Below, one piece after another: positions 3,585-15,969 of a stretch of DNA of 64,000 nt. Position 1 is the stretch's first letter; the number at the start of each line of letters is the position of its first letter. The stretch is from Thermodesulfobacteriota bacterium (GTDB lineage: Bacteria; Desulfobacterota; Desulfobacteria; Desulfobacterales; SURF-7), in the NCBI GenBank assembly GCA_049320885.1, contig JBMORA010000001.1, positions 306,622 through 370,621 of the forward strand. The letters run 5' to 3'. Made by a program: the position numbers and the translations under genes. Below the pieces are notes generated by a model. The model searched no databases, was not told the origin of the DNA, and saw nothing but the letters and a program-made list of their open reading frames with translations.

Positions 3585-4022
3585 CTAACAGGCGGCCGCC
3601 GCTTCCTCCACCTTTCTCCTCTGGGTTGCCGGACCAAGAGTCTTCACCGCCGCGATCACCTGGTTGGCGACTTCGGCGAATTTGACCCCTTCGGCGGAAG
3701 AAATCCAGGAGAAATGCAGGCGTCCGGGCTCCACGCCGGTATGTTCCAACAAATTTTTCAGCAGGGCGAATTTACGGCGGGCATAGTAATTGCCAGTGAG
3801 ATAATGACAATCACCGGGGTGACACCCGGAAACCCAGACCCCGTCGGCGCCCTTGCGCAGGGCCGCAAGGATCAGTTTCGGACTGATCCGTCCGGAACAG
3901 GGCACCCGGATCACCCGCATGTTGGGCGGGTACTGAAACCGGCTCACCCCGGCCAGATCAGCGGCGCCGTAACTGCACCAGTTGCATAAAAACGTAATGA
4001 TCTTCGGTTCGAAATCGTTCAT
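3585..4022 (-). CDS. mvhD: MvhD/FlxD-like [2Fe-2S] hydrogenase iron-sulfur subunit (all-Cys form)
   Basis: FEPKIITFLCNWCSYGAADLAG, RVPCSGR and GCHPGDCHY motifs; lies between two hdrA-family genes. Confidence 0.93.
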   Translation of the reverse strand: MNDFEPKIITFLCNWCSYGAADLAGVSRFQYPPNMRVIRVPCSGRISPKLILAALRKGADGVWVSGCHPGDCHYLTGNYYARRKFALLKNLLEHTGVEPGRLHFSWISSAEGVKFAEVANQVIAAVKTLGPATQRRKVEEAAAAC

Positions 4023-4050
4023 TTAAGCACCTTCTTTTCCTTCAGGCATG

Positions 4051-7000
4051 TCACGCGCATTCGATCATCGCCATAATCTGAGATTCCTCGAAACCTTTTA
4101 ACCGCAATGCTCCGGAGCGGCAGGAAGCCACGCAGGCCCCGCAACCCTTGCAGAGCACCGGATTGATTTCCGCCCTGCCCGCAAAGGGGCCGTCCGTCCT
4201 CAGAGAGGGCGCGTTGTAGGGACAGACGGCCACACAAACCCCGCAGCCGCTGCAATCCATTGGCGCCGAATACGCCACGGTTCCGCTGGTGCGGATGGTT
4301 TTCTGGGCCAGCAACCGGGTGGCGCCGGAGGCGGCGGCCTGGGCCTGGGCGATGGATTCGTCAATGGGCTTGGGATAATGGGCCAGTCCGCACAGGAACA
4401 CGCCGTCGGTGGCGAAATTGGAGGGGGCCAGTTTGACGTGGGCTTCGGCGAAAAAACCGTCGGCGTTCATGGGTACCTTGAAGAAGCGGGCCAGTTGTTC
4501 GTCCCTGTACGGCAAAACCGCCGCGGCCAGGGTCAGCAGATCGGCCTCGATCCGCAGCGGTTTTTTCAGGATATGATCCAGGACTTCGATTTCCAGACCG
4601 TTTTCCGCAACCCGCACCCCGGGTTTGTTCTCAAGGCTGAAACGGATGAAAACAACGCCTATTTCCCGGGCCGTCTGATACAATTTCTCGCGCTCGCCGT
4701 AGGTGCGGATATCCCGGTACAACACGAAAACGTTCATCTCCGGATTCATTTCCTTCAGATGGATCGCCGCGGCCACGCTGTGGGTGCAACAGATCCGCGA
4801 GCAGTATGGTCTTTGCGGCTCCCGGGAACCCACGCATTGAATAAAGACCGCCGTCTTCACCTCCCGGAGGGCTGGATCGCGTCGGCGCAGCCTTTCATCC
4901 AATTCCAGGGCGGTGAGCACCCGCGGGTCGTCGCCATAGCCGTATTCCGCGGGAAGGCTTTCCGTGGCGCCGGTGGCGATGACGGCCACTCCGTGGCGAA
5001 TGGTTTCCGTCCTGCCCGCCTGGTCCACGGTGGTGTCGAAATTGCCCACGAATCCGTCCACCCGGGTCAATCGGGCTTTCAGCAGGACGCGGATGCCGGG
5101 ATGGTTGGTGACGGCGATGCGGATCGCATCCAGACCGTCCTGAACCGATTCCCCCCAGGCGGTCTGGTACAACCGGTTGGCCTGCCCCCCCAGTTGACCT
5201 TCCCGTTCGATCAAGTGAACCGGATACCCCTGATCCGCCAAGGCCAACGCGGCGCTCATGCCGGAGAGTCCACCGCCGATCACCAGCGCATTTGGGTCGA
5301 TTTCCAGCTGGGCCTCCTCCAACGCCTGGTATTGGGCGACCTTGGCCGCAGCCATGCGCACCAGGTCCTTGGCTTTTTCCGTGGCGGCCAGAGGATATTC
5401 CTTGTGCACCCAGGAGCCATGGTTGCGGATGTTGACCATTTCAAACAAGTATTTGTTCAGTCCGGCGTTCAGCAGGGTTTCCTGGAATAAGGGATCGTGT
5501 GTTCTGGGCGTACAGGCGGCCACCACGATACGGTTCAGGTTCTTTTCCTCGATCAGACGGCTGATGGCGTCCTGGGTGTCCTGGGAACAGGAATACATGT
5601 TGTCGCTGACGTATTCCACAAAGGGCAATCCGGCTGCGTAATCGCGCACCGCGGGCACGTCGATGACGCCGCCGATGTTGATGCCGCAATGACAGACAAA
5701 CACCCCGATGCGGGGCCGTTCACCGTAAATGGTACGCTCGGGCCGCGGGGTGCTGGCGCGGGTCAGGGCATAGCGGCTGCCGGAAAGCGAAATACCAGCC
5801 CGCATGGCGGCCGCTCCGGCCTCCACGACGGTCTGGGGGATGTCCTTTGGGCCCTGGAAAGCGCCGCACACATAAATCCCCGGCCGGGAAGTCGACACCG
5901 GATCGAAAGAAGTAGTCCGGCAAAATCCGGAATCCGTGAGGGATACCCCCAGCTTGCCCGCCAGGCCGCGGACATCTTCCTGAATTTCCATACCAACGGA
6001 CAGGACCACGATATCGAAAACCTCCCGGGTCCACTTGCCGGTTTGCTCATCCATGTAGTCCAACACCTGACCTTTTCCCTCGCCGGTTTCGGGAAAGACC
6101 GAATGGACCTTGCAGCGCACAAAGCGGATGCCGTATTTCTCCCGGGCCTCGTTGTAGCAACTTTCAAAACCCTTCCCGTGGGTACGCATGTCCATATAGA
6201 AAATGGCGCATTCCAGATCCGGTTCATGCTCCTTGGCGATGATGGCCTGTTTAATGGCGTACATGCAGCAGACCGAGGAGCAATGGCTGTTGTCGCAGGT
6301 ATTCAAATCGCGGGAACCCACGCATTGCAGCCAGGCGATACGTTTGGGCTCCGCATGGTCGGACAGGCGCACCACGTGGCCCTGGTTGGGCCCCGAAGCC
6401 GACAGCAGGCGTTCGAATTCGATGGAGGTGACCACATCCGGATTGTTGTCATAGGAATAGATCAGTTTCCCCGCGGGATCATAGGCCTTGAATCCGGGAG
6501 CCAGAATGATGGCCCCTACATTCAGGATGATATTCCGATCCTTGTCGTCATAGTTGATGGCTCCCGCCGGGCAGGCCTTTTCACAGTTGCCGCATTTCCC
6601 CTTAGTCATGCGGATGCAATACCGCTCATCGATCGCATATTTTAATGGAACAGCCTGGGGATACTGGACATAAACGGCCTTGCGTTTGATCAGGCCCCGG
6701 TTGTACTCGTCGACGACTTTTTTGGGGCATTTTTCGGCGCAGGCGCCGCAGGCGATGCATTTTTCCATGTCCACGTAGCGGGCCTTGCGGAAGACATCCA
6801 CCTGAAAATTTCCCTGCTCGCCGCTGACATCCTTGATTTCCGCCAGGGTGATCAGTTCGATGTTCATATGCCGGCCCACCTCCACCAGCTTGGGGGACAT
6901 GATGCACATGGAACAGTCATTGGTGGGGAAGGTTTTGTCCAACTGGGACATGACGCCGCCGATGGAAGCGTTCTTCTCGATCATGTAGACATAATAACCG

Positions 7001-7083
7001 GAATTGGCCAGATCCAGGGCTGCCTGGATACCGCCGATGCCGCCGCCGGCGATCAGGACTGCTCCCGTGGTTTGCTTTGACAT
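4051..7083 (-). CDS. hdrA: Heterodisulfide reductase subunit A family protein, 1010 aa (all-Cys form)
   Basis: GGGIGG FAD motif, LDKTFPTNDCSMC, CVGSRD, CSSVCCM, duplicated HdrA halves, C-terminal 2x[4Fe-4S] motifs. Confidence 0.93.
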   Translation of the reverse strand: MSKQTTGAVLIAGGGIGGIQAALDLANSGYYVYMIEKNASIGGVMSQLDKTFPTNDCSMCIMSPKLVEVGRHMNIELITLAEIKDVSGEQGNFQVDVFRKARYVDMEKCIACGACAEKCPKKVVDEYNRGLIKRKAVYVQYPQAVPLKYAIDERYCIRMTKGKCGNCEKACPAGAINYDDKDRNIILNVGAIILAPGFKAYDPAGKLIYSYDNNPDVVTSIEFERLLSASGPNQGHVVRLSDHAEPKRIAWLQCVGSRDLNTCDNSHCSSVCCMYAIKQAIIAKEHEPDLECAIFYMDMRTHGKGFESCYNEAREKYGIRFVRCKVHSVFPETGEGKGQVLDYMDEQTGKWTREVFDIVVLSVGMEIQEDVRGLAGKLGVSLTDSGFCRTTSFDPVSTSRPGIYVCGAFQGPKDIPQTVVEAGAAAMRAGISLSGSRYALTRASTPRPERTIYGERPRIGVFVCHCGINIGGVIDVPAVRDYAAGLPFVEYVSDNMYSCSQDTQDAISRLIEEKNLNRIVVAACTPRTHDPLFQETLLNAGLNKYLFEMVNIRNHGSWVHKEYPLAATEKAKDLVRMAAAKVAQYQALEEAQLEIDPNALVIGGGLSGMSAALALADQGYPVHLIEREGQLGGQANRLYQTAWGESVQDGLDAIRIAVTNHPGIRVLLKARLTRVDGFVGNFDTTVDQAGRTETIRHGVAVIATGATESLPAEYGYGDDPRVLTALELDERLRRRDPALREVKTAVFIQCVGSREPQRPYCSRICCTHSVAAAIHLKEMNPEMNVFVLYRDIRTYGEREKLYQTAREIGVVFIRFSLENKPGVRVAENGLEIEVLDHILKKPLRIEADLLTLAAAVLPYRDEQLARFFKVPMNADGFFAEAHVKLAPSNFATDGVFLCGLAHYPKPIDESIAQAQAAASGATRLLAQKTIRTSGTVAYSAPMDCSGCGVCVAVCPYNAPSLRTDGPFAGRAEINPVLCKGCGACVASCRSGALRLKGFEESQIMAMIECA

Positions 7084-7159
7084 CGTTATCTTCTCCTTGC
7101 CTTCCTTGCTTGATTTTTCGAAAAACAGTTTCCGCGATCATTTGATGGACCGCCAAAGA

Positions 7160-8467
7160 CTAGTATCCCGGCAGATTCACTTCCGCCAAATCCGGCCCAA
7201 GATAGGCGCGTTCGTTTTCACCCAGGATGCCCAGGGAAAGCGCGATGATCGTCCACAAATGCACCGTCCGATACGCTCCCTTGCCGAAATGATGCCCCAA
7301 CTCATCAATCTGGGCATGACAGTTATGGCACGGCGTAATGACATAGGGTACGCCGGTGCGGCTGATCTGCTCATGTTTCAGTCTCCCGTAATGCAGCCGG
7401 GCATCCTTGAAACCGGACTGAAGATAGCCGCCGCCACCGCCGCAACAGTAATTGTTGGATTTGTTCGGCCACATCTCGATGACATTCTCCGCCCCCACGC
7501 AGGCTGCCGTGACAAAGCGCAGTTCATCGGCCAGGGTGTCGCCGAAGCCCTTGCGCACCTGGTTGCAGGGATCCTGAACGGTGAATTTCACCTGCAGTTC
7601 CTTGTTCCAGGAAGCATCGACCTTGAGCTTTCCCTCCCGGATCCATTTGGCGTAGTAGGAAACCATGGGGGCGATCTCCAGGTCGGTTTCGATCTTGTGC
7701 CGCTTCTGCCCCATCCAGACCGAAAACGTGGAATGACCGCATTCGGTGTTCAGGTATACCTTGCACCCTAAATTCATGGCCTGTTTCAGGGTCTTTTCCG
7801 TGATGGTCTTCCAGCCCTCGTCATCGGCCAGGAACATGCAATAGTTCTCGCCGCCCCAGCCGGTGCAGCTGTAAGTCCAATCCGCGCCGGAAAGGTGCAG
7901 GATCTTCCAAAGGGGCGCCATTTCCTCGGGTTCGGTGACCGGTTCCCGAGAATTCTGACTCAAAAAGAAATGCGCTCCCTGCTTGTCGATGGGTGCTTCC
8001 AGGTTTTCCCAGCCCGGCTGGTTGGTCCGGACTTCCTCCAGCATATCCTCCACCACAAACCGGAAATCCTCCTCCGGGGTCCCCATGGCGCTGCAGCTGT
8101 CGTTCTTCAGGGCCATGTCGCAGGACCCCAGAATCCCCTTGGGCCGTTCTTCCCGGGGCCACAATTTGCGGCCCTCGAACACCATGGCGGCGATATCGAT
8201 GTTCATCGGACAGACATAACTGCAACGCTTGCACATGCTGCACAGCCAGACCCAGGGATGTTTGGTCAGTTCCCGGTCCATTCCCAACGCCACCATGCGG
8301 ACGAATTTGCGCGGGTCCATGTCTTCCAGACCGGAGGCTGGGCAGCCCGATGCGCAAGCGCCGCAGGTCAAACATAAATTCAGATTGGCGCCCTTGGGCA
8401 ATATGCTCAACAGCTTGTTTTTGAATTGCGGTTTCCAGTCTTTTTGAATCACGATCGGATCATTCAT
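7160..8467 (-). CDS. HdrC/HdrD-like Fe-S oxidoreductase (4Fe-4S dicluster plus CCG domain)
   Basis: CLTCGACASGCP, CSMCKRCSYVCP, NTECGH, QDPC, YCCGGGGG, TPCHNC; ATG at 8467 preceded by AAAGGAAAG. Confidence 0.88.
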   Translation of the reverse strand: MNDPIVIQKDWKPQFKNKLLSILPKGANLNLCLTCGACASGCPASGLEDMDPRKFVRMVALGMDRELTKHPWVWLCSMCKRCSYVCPMNIDIAAMVFEGRKLWPREERPKGILGSCDMALKNDSCSAMGTPEEDFRFVVEDMLEEVRTNQPGWENLEAPIDKQGAHFFLSQNSREPVTEPEEMAPLWKILHLSGADWTYSCTGWGGENYCMFLADDEGWKTITEKTLKQAMNLGCKVYLNTECGHSTFSVWMGQKRHKIETDLEIAPMVSYYAKWIREGKLKVDASWNKELQVKFTVQDPCNQVRKGFGDTLADELRFVTAACVGAENVIEMWPNKSNNYCCGGGGGYLQSGFKDARLHYGRLKHEQISRTGVPYVITPCHNCHAQIDELGHHFGKGAYRTVHLWTIIALSLGILGENERAYLGPDLAEVNLPGY

Positions 8468-8664
8468 CCTGCTTTCCTTTCCCATATCGAAATAAATCCT
8501 CACCGGTATCCTGGAGCATCCATGAAGGACATGTTCCGGAGACCGATCTCTTGGCGTAAACGACGGGCGCGGCAGCGCTGAAAAAATGCCGAATGGTAAC
8601 AGCCAGTCTGAATCACCGAATGAAAAAAAGGAAACGCAGGAAAACGGAATCGATCTTCAGGCCG

Positions 8665-8736
8665 CTACTTCACCACCTGCCGAACCCGGGCAGGCACGCT
8701 GCAACACGCTCAAGTAAAGCCTGTAAACCGATGCAT
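8665..8736 (-). CDS. Putative leader peptide with in-frame UGA: MHRFTGFT(U)ACCSVPARVRQVVK*
   Basis: RBS GGGAG (8746-8742), ATG at 8736, TGA at 8712-8710, hairpin CCTGCC/GGCAGG starting 15 nt after the TGA, TAG at 8667-8665; homologous to the + strand leader at 8969. Confidence 0.7.
8676..8694 (-). promoter_or_regulatory. SECIS-like hairpin of the left leader
   Basis: CCTGCC-CGGGTTC-GGCAGG; G-containing apical loop about 21 nt after the UGA. Confidence 0.7.
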
Positions 8737-8856
8737 GGAAACTCCCGAAAGGACTTGCCGTACCCACTCCATGCGGCAATGCGCCGCACAGGCAATGGAA
8801 CGGATGGATTCACGCAATAAATTCCGGGTCGTCATAGCATGAAATCCGGCGGCGTA

Positions 8857-8910
8857 TCAAATCGATAGTTTCAATGCATATGTTTTTCCGGATTGGAATT
8901 ATCAATTTGA
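8857..8910. promoter_or_regulatory. Imperfect inverted repeat (19-bp arms, 16-bp spacer) next to putative divergent -35 elements
   Basis: TCAAATCGATAGTTTCAAT (8857-8875) versus the reverse complement of 8892-8910, TCAAATTGATAATTCCAAT: 16/19 identical. The arms run into TTGATA (- strand) and TTGACC (+ strand). Confidence 0.6.
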
Positions 8911-8968
8911 CCATTTCCGGATATCCATAATAAGAAGCATGACCATCGAATCGAAGCAGGAGCTGTCC

Positions 8969-8995
8969 ATGCAGACATTTTTCGGCTTTACCTGA
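8969..8995 (+). CDS. Putative leader peptide MQTFFGFT-UGA (readthrough frame stays open to 9286)
   Basis: RBS AGGAG 8958-8962, ATG 8969, TGA 8993-8995, hairpin GCGCCG/CGGCGC starting 15 nt after the TGA. Confidence 0.7.
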   Translation: MQTFFGFT

Positions 8996-9010
8996 GGGTT
9001 GTTGGAAACT

Positions 9011-9027
9011 GCGCCGAGTTGCGGCGC
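9011..9027 (+). promoter_or_regulatory. SECIS-like hairpin of the right leader
   Basis: GCGCCG-AGTTG-CGGCGC; G at loop position 2; loop starts 21 nt after the UGA. Confidence 0.7.
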
Positions 9028-9108
9028 TGGGGTACGGCTGAAAATCACCATCGAATCGATTGTTCCCGGTTTTTTCCGGCGCCGGCGCCCCATGCAAGAA
9101 CAGATGAC

Positions 9109-9200
9109 AGGGGCAATGGTGCTGGGCACCCCGCGGTCTTCAAAACCGTCGGCCTCGCCTGAAAATCGAGGAGGAGGTTCGATTCCCCTTGCCCCTTCCA
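9109..9200 (+). tRNA. selC*: UCA-anticodon tRNA with modified 8/4 fold and U73: selC*-type tRNA-Cys(UCA), a tRNA-Sec mimic
   Basis: Acceptor stem AGGGGCAA/TTGCCCCT (8 bp, A1:U72); D-arm GGTGC/GCACC; anticodon arm GCGGT-CTTCAAA-ACCGT (TCA at 9140-9142); long variable arm CCTCG/CGAGG; T-stem GG(A bulge)GG/CCCC with TTCGATT loop; discriminator T9197; encoded CCA. Confidence 0.88.
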
Positions 9201-9225: not shown

Positions 9226-11151
9226 ATGGACAGATATTATACCATCGGTGTGGCCGGCCATGTGGACCACGGCAAGACTTCCCTGATTCGCTGCCTGACG
9301 GGTATCGATACGGACCGCCGGACGGATGAAAAACTCCGCGGCATCTCCATCGATGCGGGGATCGCGCCGCTGGATATGCCCGACGGACACCGTATCGCCC
9401 TGGTGGATGTGCCCGGGCATACGGATTACCTGAAAAACACCGTGCGCGGACTCCATGCCGTCGACAGCGCGGTTCTGGTGGTGGCCGCCGATGACGGCAT
9501 CATGCCCCAGACAGTGGAGCATCTGGAAATTTTACGCTTTTTCAAGGTCAGCAAGGGGTTCGTAGTATTGAGCAAGACCGATCTCGTGGATCCGGAAACC
9601 AGGGAAATAGCCATGCTGGAAATCGAGGATGCCGTGAAGGGGACTTTTCTAGAGGGCTGCCCCATCGTCCCCTTCTCTGCTGTCCAAGGCGCAGGCAGGG
9701 AGGAAGTCCTGCAGCAGATCATCCAAACCACCGATGACGAAAAACGAACCGTGACGAAAGATTTTTTCCGGATGTGGATCGATCAAGTGCGGATCCGCAA
9801 GGGATTCGGAACCGTAGTCAGCGGGACAATCCTGTCCGGCAGCCTTCGCAAGGACGACGCGGTTCAACTGTTGCCGGCCGGAACCGTCGTCCGGGCGCGG
9901 ACCATCGAATCCCACGGCCGCAGCATCGAACAGGCCTGTCCGGGACAGCGCGTGGGCGTTAATCTGCACAAAATACCGGCAACCGATGTCGTCAGGGGAA
10001 TGGCCCTGTCGCAACCGGACGCCATCATTCCAAGCTATCTGCTGAATGCGGATCTCCGACTTCTCGGCAACACCGGGAAAAATCTGAAAAGCCGACAACG
10101 GGTGAAACTGCACATCGGCGCTTCCGTCACCAGCGCCATGATCGTTCTCATGGATGCGAAGGAACTGACGCCGGGCGGACAATGCCTGGCCCAGTTGCGC
10201 CTGCTGAAACCGGCGGCCGCAAGGTCACGCGATCCTTTTGTAGTCACCCCGCTGAACCGCAATACCGTCATCGGCGGCGGAACCGTTCTGGAACCGACAC
10301 AGGAGAAATACCGTAGCGCCAAATCGGCCGGAATCGTTCCGATGCTGTCGGCTCTCCGGAGCGGCAATCTTGCCGGATATTTGGATTTGTTTTTCGGCCA
10401 TCAGCAAACCCACGCTTTCTCCGCCCGGGAACTCACGGAAAAGACCGGATGGCCTCTCCCGCAACTCGAAGCGGAAATCAACGCCCGGGTGCGGAAAGGG
10501 GACCTGATTTATATCAAGGGGCTGGGCGCCCTTGCAAAAACGGAGTTCCGCCGACTCAAGGACGAAGTCCTTTTCTCCGTCGAAAGGCTTTTCCAGAGCA
10601 ACGCCGCCAAAAAAATCATCCATGAAAAGGAGATCGCCCATGATTTGTCCGCTCTTCTGGAAGAAAAACTGCTGCAAGGCATCATCGAGGAATGGTGTCA
10701 TGATGAAAAACTGACAAAAACCGGGGGCGGATTCCTCAACCCGTATTACAATGAGGCTCCGGCCACGGTTCTTTCCCCTCAGATGGAACAAACGATCCGG
10801 CTGCTCCTGGAGCATGCCCGGTCCAGCGGAATGTCGCCTTTCAGCGCCGACAGTTTCTGGAAGGCTCACGAAAAAAAACTGAACAAGCCGAGAGTCCAGC
10901 AGGCCATGGAATACCTGGCCGAGCGGAAACAGTTGATCCGCCTGCGGGACAACCGTTTTCTCGATCCGGAATCCCTGGAAATCATCAAGGAACGGGTCAG
11001 AAGCGCCATCCAGGCCAAAGGCTTCATCACCTTATCAGACAGCAGGGAAATATTAGGATACGGCCGCTGGGGCGGGGCGCCGGTATTGGACCATCTGGAT
11101 AAAATCGGCTTCACCGTCCGGATCGGGGACAAACGCCTGATCCGGCAATGA
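9226..11151 (+). CDS. selB: SelB-family translation elongation factor, divergent (selB*-like)
   Basis: GHVDHGKT, DVPGH and SKTD GTPase motifs, GFGTVVSGT, C-terminal winged-helix region; starts 25 nt after the UCA tRNA. Confidence 0.92.
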   Translation: MDRYYTIGVAGHVDHGKTSLIRCLTGIDTDRRTDEKLRGISIDAGIAPLDMPDGHRIALVDVPGHTDYLKNTVRGLHAVDSAVLVVAADDGIMPQTVEHLEILRFFKVSKGFVVLSKTDLVDPETREIAMLEIEDAVKGTFLEGCPIVPFSAVQGAGREEVLQQIIQTTDDEKRTVTKDFFRMWIDQVRIRKGFGTVVSGTILSGSLRKDDAVQLLPAGTVVRARTIESHGRSIEQACPGQRVGVNLHKIPATDVVRGMALSQPDAIIPSYLLNADLRLLGNTGKNLKSRQRVKLHIGASVTSAMIVLMDAKELTPGGQCLAQLRLLKPAAARSRDPFVVTPLNRNTVIGGGTVLEPTQEKYRSAKSAGIVPMLSALRSGNLAGYLDLFFGHQQTHAFSARELTEKTGWPLPQLEAEINARVRKGDLIYIKGLGALAKTEFRRLKDEVLFSVERLFQSNAAKKIIHEKEIAHDLSALLEEKLLQGIIEEWCHDEKLTKTGGGFLNPYYNEAPATVLSPQMEQTIRLLLEHARSSGMSPFSADSFWKAHEKKLNKPRVQQAMEYLAERKQLIRLRDNRFLDPESLEIIKERVRSAIQAKGFITLSDSREILGYGRWGGAPVLDHLDKIGFTVRIGDKRLIRQ

Positions 11152-11202: not shown

Positions 11203-12480
11203 ATGAGCGAAGAGTATACAAGCATGTGGCAATCGTTGGGACTCGACCTGGCTGCCCATGACGCCTTGCTGAATGTCCTGGGGCAGGCCTACCAGGACAT
11301 TTACCTGGCCCAGAAGAACCGGCCCGATGGAATGAAGTACTTCGACTTCGTGATGAGCGAAGTCCATGGCCTGCGCATCAAGGAACTGCTGGAGGAGAAA
11401 GCGGCTGGCAGAAAAATCGTCGGCAGTTATTGCGTCTTCGTTCCGGAGGAAATCGTGCTGGCGGCCAACGCCACCCTGGTGGGCCTGTGCGCCGGAGCCG
11501 ATTTCGCCCTGGAGGAGGCGGAAAAACTGCTGCCGCGCAATACCTGTTCCCTGATCAAATCCACCTTCGGCTTCAAACTGGGCAAGGTCTGCCCCTATCT
11601 GGAATCCGCCGACATGGTGGTGGGGGAGAACACCTGCGACGGCAAAAAGAAAGCCTACGAAATTTTGGACACCCTCATTTCCAACTTGTATGTCATGGAT
11701 CTGCCCCAGGTGAAATCCGTCGCCGGACGCGAACTCCTGAAAACCGAATACTACCGATTCAAGGCAGCCCTGGAAAAACTGACGGGCGTTACCGTGGATA
11801 AGCAGGCCCTGGAAAAAGGTATCAAAACCGTCAACGAAAAACGCAAGGCTGTTCACCGCCTGAACCGGCTGCGCGCCGCCGACCCGGCCCCCATATCCGG
11901 CCTGGACGCCCTGTTGGTCAATCAGGTGTTTTTCTATGACAACCCGGCCCGCTTCACTTCCTCCGTGAACATGATCTGTGACGAACTGGAGGGCCGCATC
12001 CGGGAGAAGTCCGGCATTTCCTCCGGAAAGCGTCCCAGAATCCTGGTATCCGGCTGTCCCATGGCCGTGCCCAACTGGAAACTTCCCTGGATTGTGGAAA
12101 CCTCCGGCGCGGTCATCGTGGGTGAGGAATCCTGCGTGGGCGAACGCGGCAGCAGAAACCTGGTGAACGGGGACGGCACTACCCTGGATGATCTGATGGA
12201 AGCCGTCATCGACCGGTACTTCGCCATCGACTGCGCCGTGTTCACGCCCAATCAAAGCCGGCTCGATCATATCGTTGAAATGGCCGCCGCCTACAAGGCG
12301 GACGGCGTCATTCACTATGGCCTGCAATTTTGCCAACCCTATTTGATGGAGTCCCTGCCCGTTGAAAAAGCCTTGAAGGATAAAGGGATTCCGGTCCTGC
12401 GGGTGGAAACCGACTACGGCCCGGAAGACGCCGGTCAGCTCAAGACCCGGGTGGAGGCCTTCCTGGAGATGCTCAAATAA
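11203..12480 (+). CDS. Double-cubane-cluster anaerobic reductase (2-hydroxyacyl-CoA dehydratase family, DCCP-like)
   Basis: N-terminal MWQSLGLDLAAHD...YFDFVMSEVHGLRIKEL, YCVFVPEE, ENTCDGKKK, EESCVG, DCAVFTPN, QFCQPY, ETDY...GQLKTRVEAF. Confidence 0.85.
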   Translation: MSEEYTSMWQSLGLDLAAHDALLNVLGQAYQDIYLAQKNRPDGMKYFDFVMSEVHGLRIKELLEEKAAGRKIVGSYCVFVPEEIVLAANATLVGLCAGADFALEEAEKLLPRNTCSLIKSTFGFKLGKVCPYLESADMVVGENTCDGKKKAYEILDTLISNLYVMDLPQVKSVAGRELLKTEYYRFKAALEKLTGVTVDKQALEKGIKTVNEKRKAVHRLNRLRAADPAPISGLDALLVNQVFFYDNPARFTSSVNMICDELEGRIREKSGISSGKRPRILVSGCPMAVPNWKLPWIVETSGAVIVGEESCVGERGSRNLVNGDGTTLDDLMEAVIDRYFAIDCAVFTPNQSRLDHIVEMAAAYKADGVIHYGLQFCQPYLMESLPVEKALKDKGIPVLRVETDYGPEDAGQLKTRVEAFLEMLK

Positions 12481-12524: not shown

Positions 12525-13664
12525 CTACCCACGCAGTTCTTTCACCGCCCGGACGACCACCTCCGCTGCCCGGTCGATCTCGCCTACGGTGGTCATCCTC
12601 CCGGTGGTGAACCGCAGCGTCCCCTTGGCCCACGCCTCGGGGAGCTTCATGGCCGTCAGCACATGGGAGATTTCCACATGGTCCGAATGGCAGGCGGCCC
12701 CGGCGGATGCGGCGACCTCAAGACCGATCCGCTCCAGAATGCGGCTGGCCTCCAGCTGGAAGAAAGAAATGCTGGCGGTGTTGGGCAACCGCAGTTCCGG
12801 ATGGCCGTTGAACCGGATATCCGTGAGTTCCGTTCCTAGAATGCCCTCCAAACGATTCCGCATGGCTTGCATGTGGCCCGCGCCGCTTTCCATAGTGGCG
12901 GCGGCGAGTTCACAGGCCTTGCCGAGGCCCACGATGCCCATCACGTTTTCGGTCCCTGCCCGGCTTCCTCTTTCCTGTCCCGCTCCGTGACAGAAAACCT
13001 TCGGCTCCACCCCGTTACGGATATACAGGCCGCCGACTCCTTTGGGCGCATACAGTTTATGACCCGCGAAGGATAGCAGATCCACCCCCAACGCGTCTGC
13101 TTCCACCCGGATCTTTCCAAGGGATTGAGCCGCATCCGTATGCATCAGAACCCCGGCTTTGCGGGCCAGGGCGGCAATTTCCGCAACCGGCTGGATGGTT
13201 CCCACTTCGTTGTTGGCATGCATGATGGAAATCAGGATGGTGTCCGGAGTAATTGCCGCGGCCACATCGGATGGGGCTACCATTCCGGTTTCATCCACCG
13301 GCAGATAAGTGACCGAGAATCCAAGGCCTTCCATATACCTACAGGTTTCAAGCACCGCCGGATGCTCCACCAGACTGGTTATCAAATGCTTGCCGCGGGC
13401 GAAACGGTTGCCGGCGATGCTCTTGATGGCCTGATTAATGGATTCGGTGCCGCCGCTGGTGAAAATAATTTCTTCCGCGGTGCAATCGATCAAACCGGCC
13501 ACCTGCCGCCGGGCCGCCTCCACAGCCTGTTTGGGACGGATTCCATACCAATGGGAACTGGACGGGTTGCCGAATTCCGTTTCCAGATAAGGCCTCATGG
13601 CGGCGATGACTTCCGGCGCATGCGGCGTGGTCCCGTTGTAATCCAGATAAATGGGTTTGGTCAT
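12525..13664 (-). CDS. Cysteine desulfurase / selenocysteine lyase family (NifS/IscS group I)
   Basis: IYLDYNGTTP, FGNPSS, FTSGGTE, HTDAAQ, GHKLYAPKGVG, catalytic loop ASAGAACHS. Confidence 0.92.
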   Translation of the reverse strand: MTKPIYLDYNGTTPHAPEVIAAMRPYLETEFGNPSSSHWYGIRPKQAVEAARRQVAGLIDCTAEEIIFTSGGTESINQAIKSIAGNRFARGKHLITSLVEHPAVLETCRYMEGLGFSVTYLPVDETGMVAPSDVAAAITPDTILISIMHANNEVGTIQPVAEIAALARKAGVLMHTDAAQSLGKIRVEADALGVDLLSFAGHKLYAPKGVGGLYIRNGVEPKVFCHGAGQERGSRAGTENVMGIVGLGKACELAAATMESGAGHMQAMRNRLEGILGTELTDIRFNGHPELRLPNTASISFFQLEASRILERIGLEVAASAGAACHSDHVEISHVLTAMKLPEAWAKGTLRFTTGRMTTVGEIDRAAEVVVRAVKELRG

Positions 13665-13956
13665 GGGTTACCCTTTTCCAGCATGAAAACGCGGTCTACA
13701 AACTTGTAAATGTCCTCCACTTCTGCTTGCAGCGCCTCATCCGTCTTTCGTCAGGGAGATATCATAAAACATCGGCATTGTCTAATATCTCCAGAATGGT
13801 GGATGCCTATAGAATTCATGAATGAAGGTGCGATTTATAATTCATATTATCTATTTGTATATCCTTTCATTCCATGGTTTTATCTATTTTTCAGCCAAAT
13901 CGTCAAGCCGGCCGGGAGTTAGGAACGGATATCAACAATCAAGAAAAGGATTCGTC

Positions 13957-15969
13957 ATGAACAATTGCAGGGCAGAAGTTTTCAGGTTGTTTTTTCTAGT
14001 AGTAATCGCTGTATCGCTGATCACGGGATGCGGCAGTTCTTCGGACTCGACGGACGGTGGTAGTCCGGCGCCGGGGAACGACACGGGCAAGCCCACGGCA
14101 GCCCAGACCGGCGACCTGTCATTGTTTCCCAATGCCGATCTGCTGGCCTCGGCCACGGATCTGGTCACCGACGAAGGCGTGATGAAAAACATGGCTGAGT
14201 GGGTCATTGTCGATACTAGGTCCGCCGCCGACTATGCCGCGGGGCATATCCCGGGCGCCATCAACCTTCAATGGGATTCCTTTGCCGTCCGGGACGGCTC
14301 CACGCCCAAAGGCAGCCTGCTGCCCGTGGACAGCCTCGCGGCGGTCCTGGGAGCCGCGGGACTGACAGAGGACACCGCCGTGATTTTTTATGACGACACC
14401 CTGGCTTCCCGGGGTTCGGCCGGACGTTTATTCTGGATGCTGGAGTATCTCGGCAACACCCGTTGCAGAATCCTCAACGGCGGCTGGGACAAATGGGCCG
14501 CCGATGACCTCCCGACGGAAACCACCGTCAACACCCTTCCCGCCGCCGTATTCGTACCGGACGTCGATGCCTCCGTTCGGGCCGATAAAACCGGAATCGC
14601 CGCCAGACTCAATCATGACGATTTTGTCCTGGTGGACACCCGCACCGATGAGGAATTCACGGGCTGGCGCCTGTATGACGAAGCCCGCGAAGGGCATGTG
14701 AAAGGAGCGGTCCACCTGCCCTTCGCCTGGTGCTTCAACGCGGACAAATCGGTCCTGAGCCATGCGGCTCTGAAAACCCTGCTGGAATCGCGGGGTATCA
14801 CGGGCGACAAGGAAATCGCGGCCTATAGCACGGACGGTGTCCGCAGCGGGTTCCTGTATTTCCTGGGACGTCTGATGGGGTATGACGTCATCGCCAATTA
14901 CGACGCTTCCATCCGGGAATGGGCCGAAGGCGATGACACAACATACCCCATGGAAAAAATGGCAGGATATTCCGAGCTGGTCTATCCGGCGTGGGTCAAG
15001 GCCCTGATCGATTATCACGCCCCGGGCAGCGCCACCGAAGCACCGCCGGGATATCTCCATGATCGTGGTCATCGCCATATCATCTTCGAAACCCAGTGGG
15101 GCAGCTTCGAGGACATGGCCAACGGGTGGGCGGACGACGCTTATCTGAAAGGGCATATTCCCGGCGCCGTGCATTCCAATTCGGACACTTACGAAAACGG
15201 ATTCCCCCGCTGGTTTTTGCTGCCGGAAGACCAGTTGAAGCAGGCGCTGGGCAGCATGGGCGTCACCGCCGACGCCACGGTGGTGGTGTACAGCAACAAC
15301 CCCATTTTTGCCGCCCGCCTGTGGTGGATCTTGAAATACGCGGGGGTGCAGGACGTCCGATTGCTCAACGGCGGCTATGACGCCTGGGTTGCAGCCGGCT
15401 ACGAATCCGAAACCACCGTGAACGACTCCGCGGCGGTCACCTATGACGGTTCGGTTGTACCAGGTCTGATCGCCGCAACGGATTATGTTGCGGCCAATTA
15501 TAATACCGGCGGCGCCGTCCTGGCCGATGTGCGCACCTGGGCGGAATACATCGGTGAGACCAGCGGCTACAGCTATGTCGTCAACAAGGGCCGCATTCCG
15601 GGCGCTGTCTGGGCCTATAATGCGGACAATCCGGATCGGGAATACCTGGATGATGACGGCACCCTTCGCAGCTTCACCGAGGTAAGAGGCATGTGGGCAG
15701 GTCTGGGGATTACCGCCGCGGAGGGAAGTTCAACCTTTGACCGGGAGGTCATTTTCTACTGTGGGAGCGGTTACCGCTCCAGCCTGAGCTTTCTCCATGC
15801 CCATCTGATGGGATATCAAAATGTGCGGAACTATTCGGACGGCTGGGAGGGTTGGAGCACCACCTATACCGAATCCCCCGATTATGTCGCCGATCCGGCG
15901 GTTCCCGGCAGCACGGACGGCTGGCTCCAAGACCCCTCCGGAAGACCGGTTGCCAGCGGCGCTCCCTGA
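13957..15969 (+). CDS. Four-domain rhodanese (sulfurtransferase) lipoprotein
   Basis: Lipobox LITG-C; repeated GHIPGA/GHVKGA/GRIPGA motifs; last domain IFYCGSGYRS; second domain has YSTDGVRS (Ser in place of Cys). Confidence 0.88.
   Translation: MNNCRAEVFRLFFLVVIAVSLITGCGSSSDSTDGGSPAPGNDTGKPTAAQTGDLSLFPNADLLASATDLVTDEGVMKNMAEWVIVDTRSAADYAAGHIPGAINLQWDSFAVRDGSTPKGSLLPVDSLAAVLGAAGLTEDTAVIFYDDTLASRGSAGRLFWMLEYLGNTRCRILNGGWDKWAADDLPTETTVNTLPAAVFVPDVDASVRADKTGIAARLNHDDFVLVDTRTDEEFTGWRLYDEAREGHVKGAVHLPFAWCFNADKSVLSHAALKTLLESRGITGDKEIAAYSTDGVRSGFLYFLGRLMGYDVIANYDASIREWAEGDDTTYPMEKMAGYSELVYPAWVKALIDYHAPGSATEAPPGYLHDRGHRHIIFETQWGSFEDMANGWADDAYLKGHIPGAVHSNSDTYENGFPRWFLLPEDQLKQALGSMGVTADATVVVYSNNPIFAARLWWILKYAGVQDVRLLNGGYDAWVAAGYESETTVNDSAAVTYDGSVVPGLIAATDYVAANYNTGGAVLADVRTWAEYIGETSGYSYVVNKGRIPGAVWAYNADNPDREYLDDDGTLRSFTEVRGMWAGLGITAAEGSSTFDREVIFYCGSGYRSSLSFLHAHLMGYQNVRNYSDGWEGWSTTYTESPDYVADPAVPGSTDGWLQDPSGRPVASGAP

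Follow-up and report, generated by a model that had tools for sequence, protein, structure and literature searches.

The window (the whole 64,000-nt stretch of DNA that was analysed) carries two divergent leaders, left on the minus strand and right on the plus strand, each with an 8-codon ORF of the form M-x4-GFT-UGA and a SECIS-like hairpin (table 1). From sequence comparison and predicted folding we lean, by a little, towards reading both as attenuators that sense selenocysteine: a ribosome stalled at the UGA would favour a long helix, and this helix would shield a C-rich tract from Rho. The leaders share an anatomy that is conserved among homologues, both alternative helices covary, the spacer is C-rich, and the genes downstream are linked to selenium.

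In the proposed mechanism, when selenium is present SelB would bring Sec-tRNA, and the ribosome would pass the UGA and then halt over segment 2, the switching strand, or depart. A ribosome halted on the SECIS 3' arm or on segment 2 would block pairing of segment 2 with the downstream segment 3 (helix 2:3) and later permit its pairing with segment 1, the codons of the leader ORF (helix 1:2). With helix 1:2 formed, the spacer would emerge unpaired and Rho would terminate transcription (OFF). When Sec-tRNA is absent, the ribosome would wait at the UGA with segment 1 covered, segments 2 and 3 would pair, sometimes zipping into the SECIS, the pyrimidine tract would be looped out, and transcription would reach Cys-version enzymes, selenium uptake genes or selC*/selB* (ON). 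We infer the ON/OFF polarity from the gene content downstream. Several facts count against the mechanism. According to the accessible text of PMC4513850, RF2 can terminate at a UGA-SECIS when Sec-tRNA is absent, most chains being released within about 2 min in vitro, so that the stall would be briefer. On the right, the frame past the UGA is open for 96 codons, to 9284-9286, crossing the tRNA and entering selB* out of frame, and such read-through across the tRNA should itself shield against Rho.

Table 1. Features of the two leaders and of the adjoining genes (positions within the window).
Feature	Position	Strand	Remarks
Left operon start	3585..8503	-	Cys where the genome's paralogues have UGA
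MvhD-like gene	3585-4022	-	
HdrA-like gene	4051-7083	-	
HdrC/CCG-type Fe-S protein gene	7160-8503	-	
Left far partner	8564..8582	-	predicted invader of SECIS loop and 3' arm (8688-8677 with 8575-8564)
Left segment 3	8596..8611	-	predicted alternative partner of segment 2 (8668-8660 with 8604-8596)
Left pyrimidine-rich spacer	8612..8654	-	candidate Rho-loading tract; 10 C, 7 G, U7; includes non-conserved CCTGC 8640-8636
Left segment 2	8655..8675	-	switching strand; includes the downstream stop codon
Left ORF past UGA	TAG 8667-8665	-	14 further codons to TAG
Left SECIS-like hairpin	8676..8694	-	stem CCTGCC/GGCAGG; UGA-hairpin spacer 15 nt
Left segment 1	8709..8731	-	leader ORF codons and UGA; predicted partner, segment 2 when ribosome absent; family covariation
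Left leader ORF	8665..8736	-	ATG 8736, MHRFTGFT, UGA 8712-8710
Left Shine-Dalgarno	~8745-8742	-	GGAG
Right leader ORF	8969..8995	+	ATG 8969, MQTFFGFT, UGA 8993-8995
Right segment 1	8975-8996	+	
Right SECIS-like hairpin	9011..9027	+	stem GCGCCG/CGGCGC; 15-nt spacer after UGA
Right segment 2	9028..9044	+	switching strand
Right spacer	9045..9078	+	10 C, 6 G, U6 at 9070-9075
Right segment 3	9079..9093	+	includes GCGCCG 9079-9084 and second GCGCC 9085-9089; predicted partner, segment 2
selC*-type tRNA	9109..9200	+	UCA anticodon, A1:U72, U73
Second selB (selB*)	9226..11151	+	31.6% identity to the other selB, on contig C27

The leaders and their homologues

Both leaders, and the family to which they belong, have a short leader ORF with a Shine-Dalgarno sequence and a sensing codon. 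The hairpins have a G-containing loop and stand past the in-frame UGA at the spacing used by the organism, the distance being the same as in the hdrA selenoprotein genes of the genome, features that suggest bacterial SECIS elements. The right spacer is shorter than is usual in the family and has more structure.

Homologous leaders were collected from SelB* loci and by searching 401 genomes of the order, and metagenomes, with a sequence pattern. The pattern was matched in 26 of the 401 genomes (0 matches with a reversed-pattern control) and at 120 metagenome loci, with 0 matches on viral contigs; the scan of genome contigs with SelB* yielded one useful locus out of 80. The 135 candidates were reduced to 127 full-length leaders (8 being short or having a stop in the ORF), to 118 with an anchored hairpin (among the 9 lost, L144, L214, L230 and L130 were scored later with a covariance model), to 106 after removal of 12 redundant at 85%, and to a working family of 94 after 12 more had failed the cut on pairing between leader ORF and segment 2 (z<-1.5), so that the family is selected on helix 1:2. 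The GFT-UGA codons are forced by the search pattern, which makes their conservation in the set circular, and related leaders are not independent.

The covariance model of the leader found matches in 9 of 151 genomes of the phylum and at further selB* loci. Eighteen model-found leaders that the pattern had missed form the held-out set, L015 being excluded for lack of an in-frame start codon. A start codon lies eight codons ahead of the UGA in 23 of the 24 leaders examined with the model, which had been trained on such a layout, and in 70 of the 94 leaders the first stop past the UGA lies within the SECIS 3' arm or segment 2. A third candidate in the genome of the window (C14:64371) was rejected, the sole matches of the model in that genome being the two leaders of the window.

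Some side observations concern the family. The leader L015 (1240-1440), at a selC* locus, keeps FGFT-UGA and the hairpin and has no start codon eight codons upstream; it is possibly decayed. Several leaders lie within about 10 kb of one contig (L120, L138 and L141 on G369 C40; L217 and L220), which suggests selenium-regulon islands. An CAATTTGAC-like motif is found at 8903-8913 (+), 5' of the right leader, and, with at most one mismatch, 5' of 56 of the 94 leaders; it may be merely a -35 box, or else a regulator site.

Alternative helices

Covariation indicates that segment 1 pairs with segment 2, just 3' of the SECIS, so that the SECIS is enclosed. For helix 1:2 together with the SECIS, 89.9% of the alignment cells are paired and 47 double changes are found versus 13.6 in shuffled alignments, a value that none of 500 shuffles attains (alignment of 58 of the 94 sequences); helix 1:2 also has z<-1.5 in 13 of the 18 held-out leaders, a count that is partly circular. 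The second partner of segment 2, segment 3, gives a peak 64-75 nt past the SECIS. Helix 2:3 is 67% paired, with 80 double changes versus 48 in shuffles (0/500 as high), in a register picked on the same alignment as was tested, and two of the five measures failed against shuffles (55 and 144 of 500). Segment 2 pairs better with its cognate segment-3 window than with non-cognate ones (residual, -2.84 kcal/mol, negative in 82% of 89), the corresponding values being -0.16 and 0.09 for two upstream control windows and +0.89 for the nearer pyrimidine spacer. Taken alone, the 2:3 duplex is weak in the 18 held-out leaders (mean z, -0.55; 3/18 below -1.5). When the long-range helix is scored as a whole, it outdoes pairing with shuffled downstream sequence in 16 of the 18 held-out leaders and in 38 of 47 training leaders, the latter being every second member of the 94. 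Long-range pairing amounts to 19-20 bp, versus 11.7 bp in composition-keeping shuffles.

The same values bear on the possibility that only helix 1:2 and the stalled ribosome matter, in a tnaC-like manner, and that downstream pairing is incidental, arising because segment 2 is G-rich and encounters a pyrimidine tract. The weak held-out scores of the 2:3 duplex and the modest share of paired cells in its columns would suit this reading. However, the cognate advantage is limited to the segment-3 window, being absent in the nearer pyrimidine spacer, and composition-keeping shuffles cut the long-range pairing, so that we regard it as distinctly unlikely.

With a ribosome footprint placed at the UGA, helix 1:2 is predicted to fall from 9.2 to 0 bp and pairing of segment 2 with downstream sequence to rise from 4.8 to 12.1 bp (family mean); in the left leader 2:3 rises from 3.6 to 13.1 bp. 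In the right leader, the 2:3 state is predicted to win with or without the ribosome once segment 3 has been transcribed. When the left transcript is grown from 8650 to 8600 with the ribosome off segment 1, helix 1:2 has about 14 expected bp while the pyrimidine tract emerges, and the long helix takes over only by 8560. Since the full-length long helix wins even without a ribosome, the choice between the folds must be kinetic, as would suit transcription termination. Prediction and covariation thus agree in pointing to mutually exclusive folds set by the ribosome, more weakly so in the held-out set and in the right leader.

The SECIS-like hairpin and its predicted invasion

The SECIS stem of the family is 95.8% paired, with double changes at four of its five pairs, and is weak in the predicted ensemble (1.2-1.5 of 5.7 bp); the anchored-hairpin test is one that 54% of shuffles pass. 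A further hairpin, in which the SECIS loop would pair with the beginning of segment 2, is 71% paired without covariation (187-433 of 500 shuffles as high) and was treated as incidental.

In the left leader, the long helix is predicted to run on into the SECIS by about 11 bp (z, -4.3), and the SECIS-invaded fold is better by 3.7 kcal/mol than the fold that keeps the hairpin. The lowest-energy folds invade the SECIS in three of four left and two of four right orthologues, with differing sequences. In the right leader itself, a fold invaded via the second GCGCC is less stable than the best one by 2.1 kcal/mol. Across the family, only a minority of leaders show invasion (z<-1.5 in 18/87 and in 5/18 held-out), with no cognate signal over the upstream control (residual -0.25 versus -0.40), so that it would be an extension of the segment-2 long helix in some leaders only.

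SECIS invasion is central to an alternative in which SelB-GTP-Sec-tRNA bound to the SECIS is itself the sensor, holding the hairpin and blocking the invading long helix, with the ribosome in a secondary role. The invaded folds of the orthologues and of several held-out leaders and the weakness of the bare SECIS stem would fit, and a precedent is available, as far as the accessible part of the report goes, in the SECIS-like element of the E. coli selAB 5' UTR, a translational repressor placed 3 nt from the Shine-Dalgarno sequence (bioRxiv 10.64898/2026.03.03.709296). Nevertheless, the small share of invading leaders, the missing cognate signal, the start codon placed eight codons 5' of the UGA in 23 of 24 leaders and the standing of segment 1 as the best-supported partner all argue against this alternative, which we consider unlikely. 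The leaders resemble the selAB element, as described in the text available, in that a SECIS, read there by SelB-GTP-Sec-tRNA, couples expression to the supply of Sec, and differ from it in having a UGA-containing leader ORF and an alternative long helix, neither of which that text describes. Nor is the SECIS placed beside the Shine-Dalgarno sequence of the first gene in either leader of the window, the first gene being a tRNA on the right and lying about 200 nt past the UGA on the left. Control of a ribosome-binding site is further argued against because in 42 of the 94 leaders a selC*-type tRNA follows within about 250 nt (28 with a UCA and 14 with a GCA anticodon, some partial). The latter is a motif count, since ARAGORN reported 11 tRNAs in 88 leaders and missed others seen by motif.

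The spacer and the type of termination

The reading of the leaders as ribosome-set attenuators acting through Rho draws on the composition of the spacer, which in the family is 30% C, 11% G and 69% pyrimidine, with C exceeding G in 93 of 94 leaders and in 18 of 18 held-out ones and a C/G ratio of 1.95 versus 1.12 upstream. A consistent C>G skew fits a Rho site, and a rho gene is present in the genome. The spacer, being C-rich, G-poor and poorly structured, is thus a candidate Rho-loading tract. In the two leaders of the window the skew is mild (C:G, 11:8 left and 16:12 right), and the unpaired fraction of the spacer shifts only modestly (0.64 versus 0.51). An intrinsic terminator of the trpL type, that is, a hairpin with a U-tract, was found in neither leader, and terminator-like hairpins in the family number 1 of 93 versus 1.6 expected. 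Of the two modes of termination put forward in the original prediction, the intrinsic one is thus rejected; as to the Rho-dependent one on a pyrimidine-rich tract, the tract is suited to Rho and the action of Rho itself is a proposal.

The same switch may have another output, the unpaired pyrimidine tract governing RNase cleavage, mRNA decay, pre-tRNA processing or downstream translation instead of Rho. That many spacers are U-rich as well as C-rich, that the tRNA begins about 20-40 nt past segment 3 in many leaders and that a ribosome reading through on the right would run over the tRNA and into selB* in the wrong frame are in keeping with such outputs, but the consistency of the C>G skew and, in the left leader, the position of the next start codon about 200 nt past the UGA, well beyond segment 3, are against them, and we find them improbable.

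The original prediction had started from short repeats, proposing that each SECIS has its own downstream pairing copy beside a U-tract, that the two copies reflect compensatory change, and that the SECIS 3' arm pairs in two mutually exclusive ways depending on ribosome position. The observation is partly confirmed. The SECIS 5' arms CCTGCC (left) and GCGCCG (right) are present in their stems, and the letters and positions are exact for CCTGC at 8640-8636 with U7 at 8629-8623 (minus strand) and for GCGCCG at 9079-9084 with U6 at 9070-9075. In 2000 dinucleotide shuffles of the downstream zone, chance yields the left 5-mer copy at a rate of 5.9% and the right 6-mer copy at 6.1% (any right 5-mer, 38%), with a joint value for both of 0.4% that is post hoc. 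The copies are not shown to exceed chance, nor are they enriched in homologous leaders, an exact 5-mer of the SECIS 5' arm being found in 10 of 106 versus 12.0 expected, with nearer-zone counts of 5 versus 6.6 and 1 versus 1.4 expected. In the zone of the copies, the SECIS loop and 3' arm beat shuffles (z<-1.5) in 6 of 94 leaders and in 0 of 18 held-out ones, and U6+ tracts occur in just 17 of 94. Compensatory change is contradicted on the left because four genus-level orthologues have CCTGC, CCTGT, CTTTT and a gap at the position of the copy. In constrained folding with the ribosome at the UGA, the pairings first proposed cost +7.8 (left) and +6.2 (right) kcal/mol, and in the ensembles with a stalled ribosome they account for 0.000 and 0.002 expected base pairs.

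The predicted left partner is instead 8575-8564, about 65 nt from the repeat; the right GCGCCG copy is part of the true downstream partner strand, 9079-9093, and corresponds in the alignment to a GCGCC which, in the orthologue L002, is the partner of the SECIS arm. The exact initial model, in which the 5-6-nt copies by U-tracts are the partners of the SECIS 3' arm, perhaps within an intrinsic terminator, could appeal to the existence of both copies, each at about 6% by chance, and to the alignment with L002. It is nevertheless highly improbable given the counts among homologues, the folding costs, the non-conserved left copy, the lack of a terminator in either leader and the placement of the right U6 upstream of the copy. 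The short repeats are mostly due to chance, yet they point to a conserved switch architecture with relocated partners. What is retained of the interpretation, which is partly supported, is the outline of ribosome-position-dependent, mutually exclusive pairings; the partners first proposed and the SECIS 3' arm as core switching strand are not, this role being taken by the segment 3' of the SECIS (8675-8655 and 9028-9044), which pairs either with the codons of the leader ORF or with a strand some 60-80 nt further on.

Comparison with known attenuators

In the trpL and hisL attenuators, the leader peptide contains the sensing codon, pairing 1:2 alternates with 2:3, and the stop codon overlaps segment 2. 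The leaders described here share these three features and differ in that there is no 3:4 intrinsic terminator and in that the sensing codon is a recoded stop (hisL is also covered in the accessible text of PMC12360218). From the same text, in the mgtA/mgtL and corA/corL leaders of Salmonella translation of an upstream ORF decides the leader fold and the masking of Rut, stalling leading to expression (PMC12360218). Here too, translation of a short upstream ORF would set the leader fold and the masking of the tract, with expression upon stalling. However, Sec-tRNA at a UGA-SECIS would take the place of magnesium as the signal, the helices share no sequence relationship, and Rho is only proposed. 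In tnaC, speFL and cruR, as summarized in that text, the ribosome directly covers the Rut site and the nascent peptide is the target of a small ligand (PMC12360218). Similarly, a ribosome held at a stop-type codon of the leader ORF would prevent Rho termination here, but the candidate tract starts about 55 nt past the UGA and would be masked by a helix.

Best E in Rfam was 0.34, far below the gathering score, and NCBIfam returned 0 families for both leader peptides. No description of the element was found in the literature searched, including the accessible text of PMC5389517, PMC8124441, PMC4513850, PMC7609411, PMC12360218 and PMC13188914, most subscription papers being outside this coverage. 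We hold it evenly balanced whether the leaders represent a widespread, undescribed class of attenuators that would use the recoding step (UGA, SECIS and SelB) as sensor, and whose three-strand switch, sometimes destroying its own SECIS, would gate Rho and run a selenium-starvation regulon along with the reading of UGA as Cys, by a tRNA that could feed back on the leader codon. In the papers found, as far as their text was available, selenium sensing and the swap from selenoenzymes to Cys versions are unexplained in these anaerobes. The leader, at about 150 nt and with named, mutable strands, offers a defined sensor and a route to selenium-regulated genes by sequence, and would also serve as a natural reporter of Sec-tRNA supply.

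Genes downstream and a proposed selenium-linked regulon

The genome contains selA and two selB genes, with the canonical tRNA-Sec on contig C12. Among the leader-bearing genomes searched, selA was found in 9 of 10, the miss (G111) being a genome 94% complete. A U73, a UCA or GCA anticodon and a second selB downstream are the marks of the selC*/SelB* system in the accessible text of PMC5389517, and the right locus of the window, with U73, a UCA anticodon and a second selB downstream, conforms to those of selC* tRNA-Cys. The ORF list shows no cysS* directly 3' of selB* in the window, and for this reason a 759-aa ORF outside it (L109:550-2829, G000 C1), a fusion with a CysRS catalytic domain that contains the second CysRS-like match, was considered as a possible charger of the selC* tRNA. 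Its front half we take, from its sequence, to resemble cysteine synthase.

The Cys-version HdrA/MvhD pair of the left operon has UGA-bearing paralogues at C1:376318-379260, about 65 kb away on the same contig and 63% and 71% identical. Because of these Cys-version genes on the left and the selC*/SelB* marks on the right, both operons appear to be fallbacks for times when selenium is scarce. In Methanococcus maripaludis, the Cys/Sec isoenzyme switch reportedly uses a DNA-binding regulator. The likeness to it lies in the Cys-version enzymes for selenium shortage (available text of PMC11097638), and that to the selC* tRNA-Cys/SelB* system in regulated genes that would provide a UGA-to-Cys backup for selenium shortage (PMC5389517, likewise). 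The words 'leader' and 'SECIS' are absent from the main text and one supplement of PMC5389517, figures not covered, and its text names no regulator of selC*/SelB*.

Other genes downstream of leaders, from 30 of 68 downstream ORFs scanned, are those for Hdr/Mvh, formate dehydrogenase, Sulf_transp (YedE type), SelD, Se_S_carrier, porin, binding-protein and HGD-D. With motifs partly drawn from general knowledge, the Hdr/Mvh/Fdh sites have Cys in 19 of 19 cases and the SelD sites have UGA in 3 of 3.

Degenerate or truncated remnants of selC*-like tRNAs were noted 114-140 nt past the UGA in L164, L187, L189 and L232, with leaders intact; those in L164 and L189 precede Se_S_carrier or selD genes. 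In the window, a 425-aa gene convergent on selB* (11203-12480, minus strand) resembles in its N-terminal part the HGD-D genes that follow leaders in L150, L156, L179, L196, L217 and L263, and has no leader by the covariance model. Finally, genes for a 715-aa multi-rhodanese protein (13822-15969, plus strand) and a NifS-like desulfurase (12525-13664) adjoin the selB* locus and are possibly concerned with sulfur or selenium handling.
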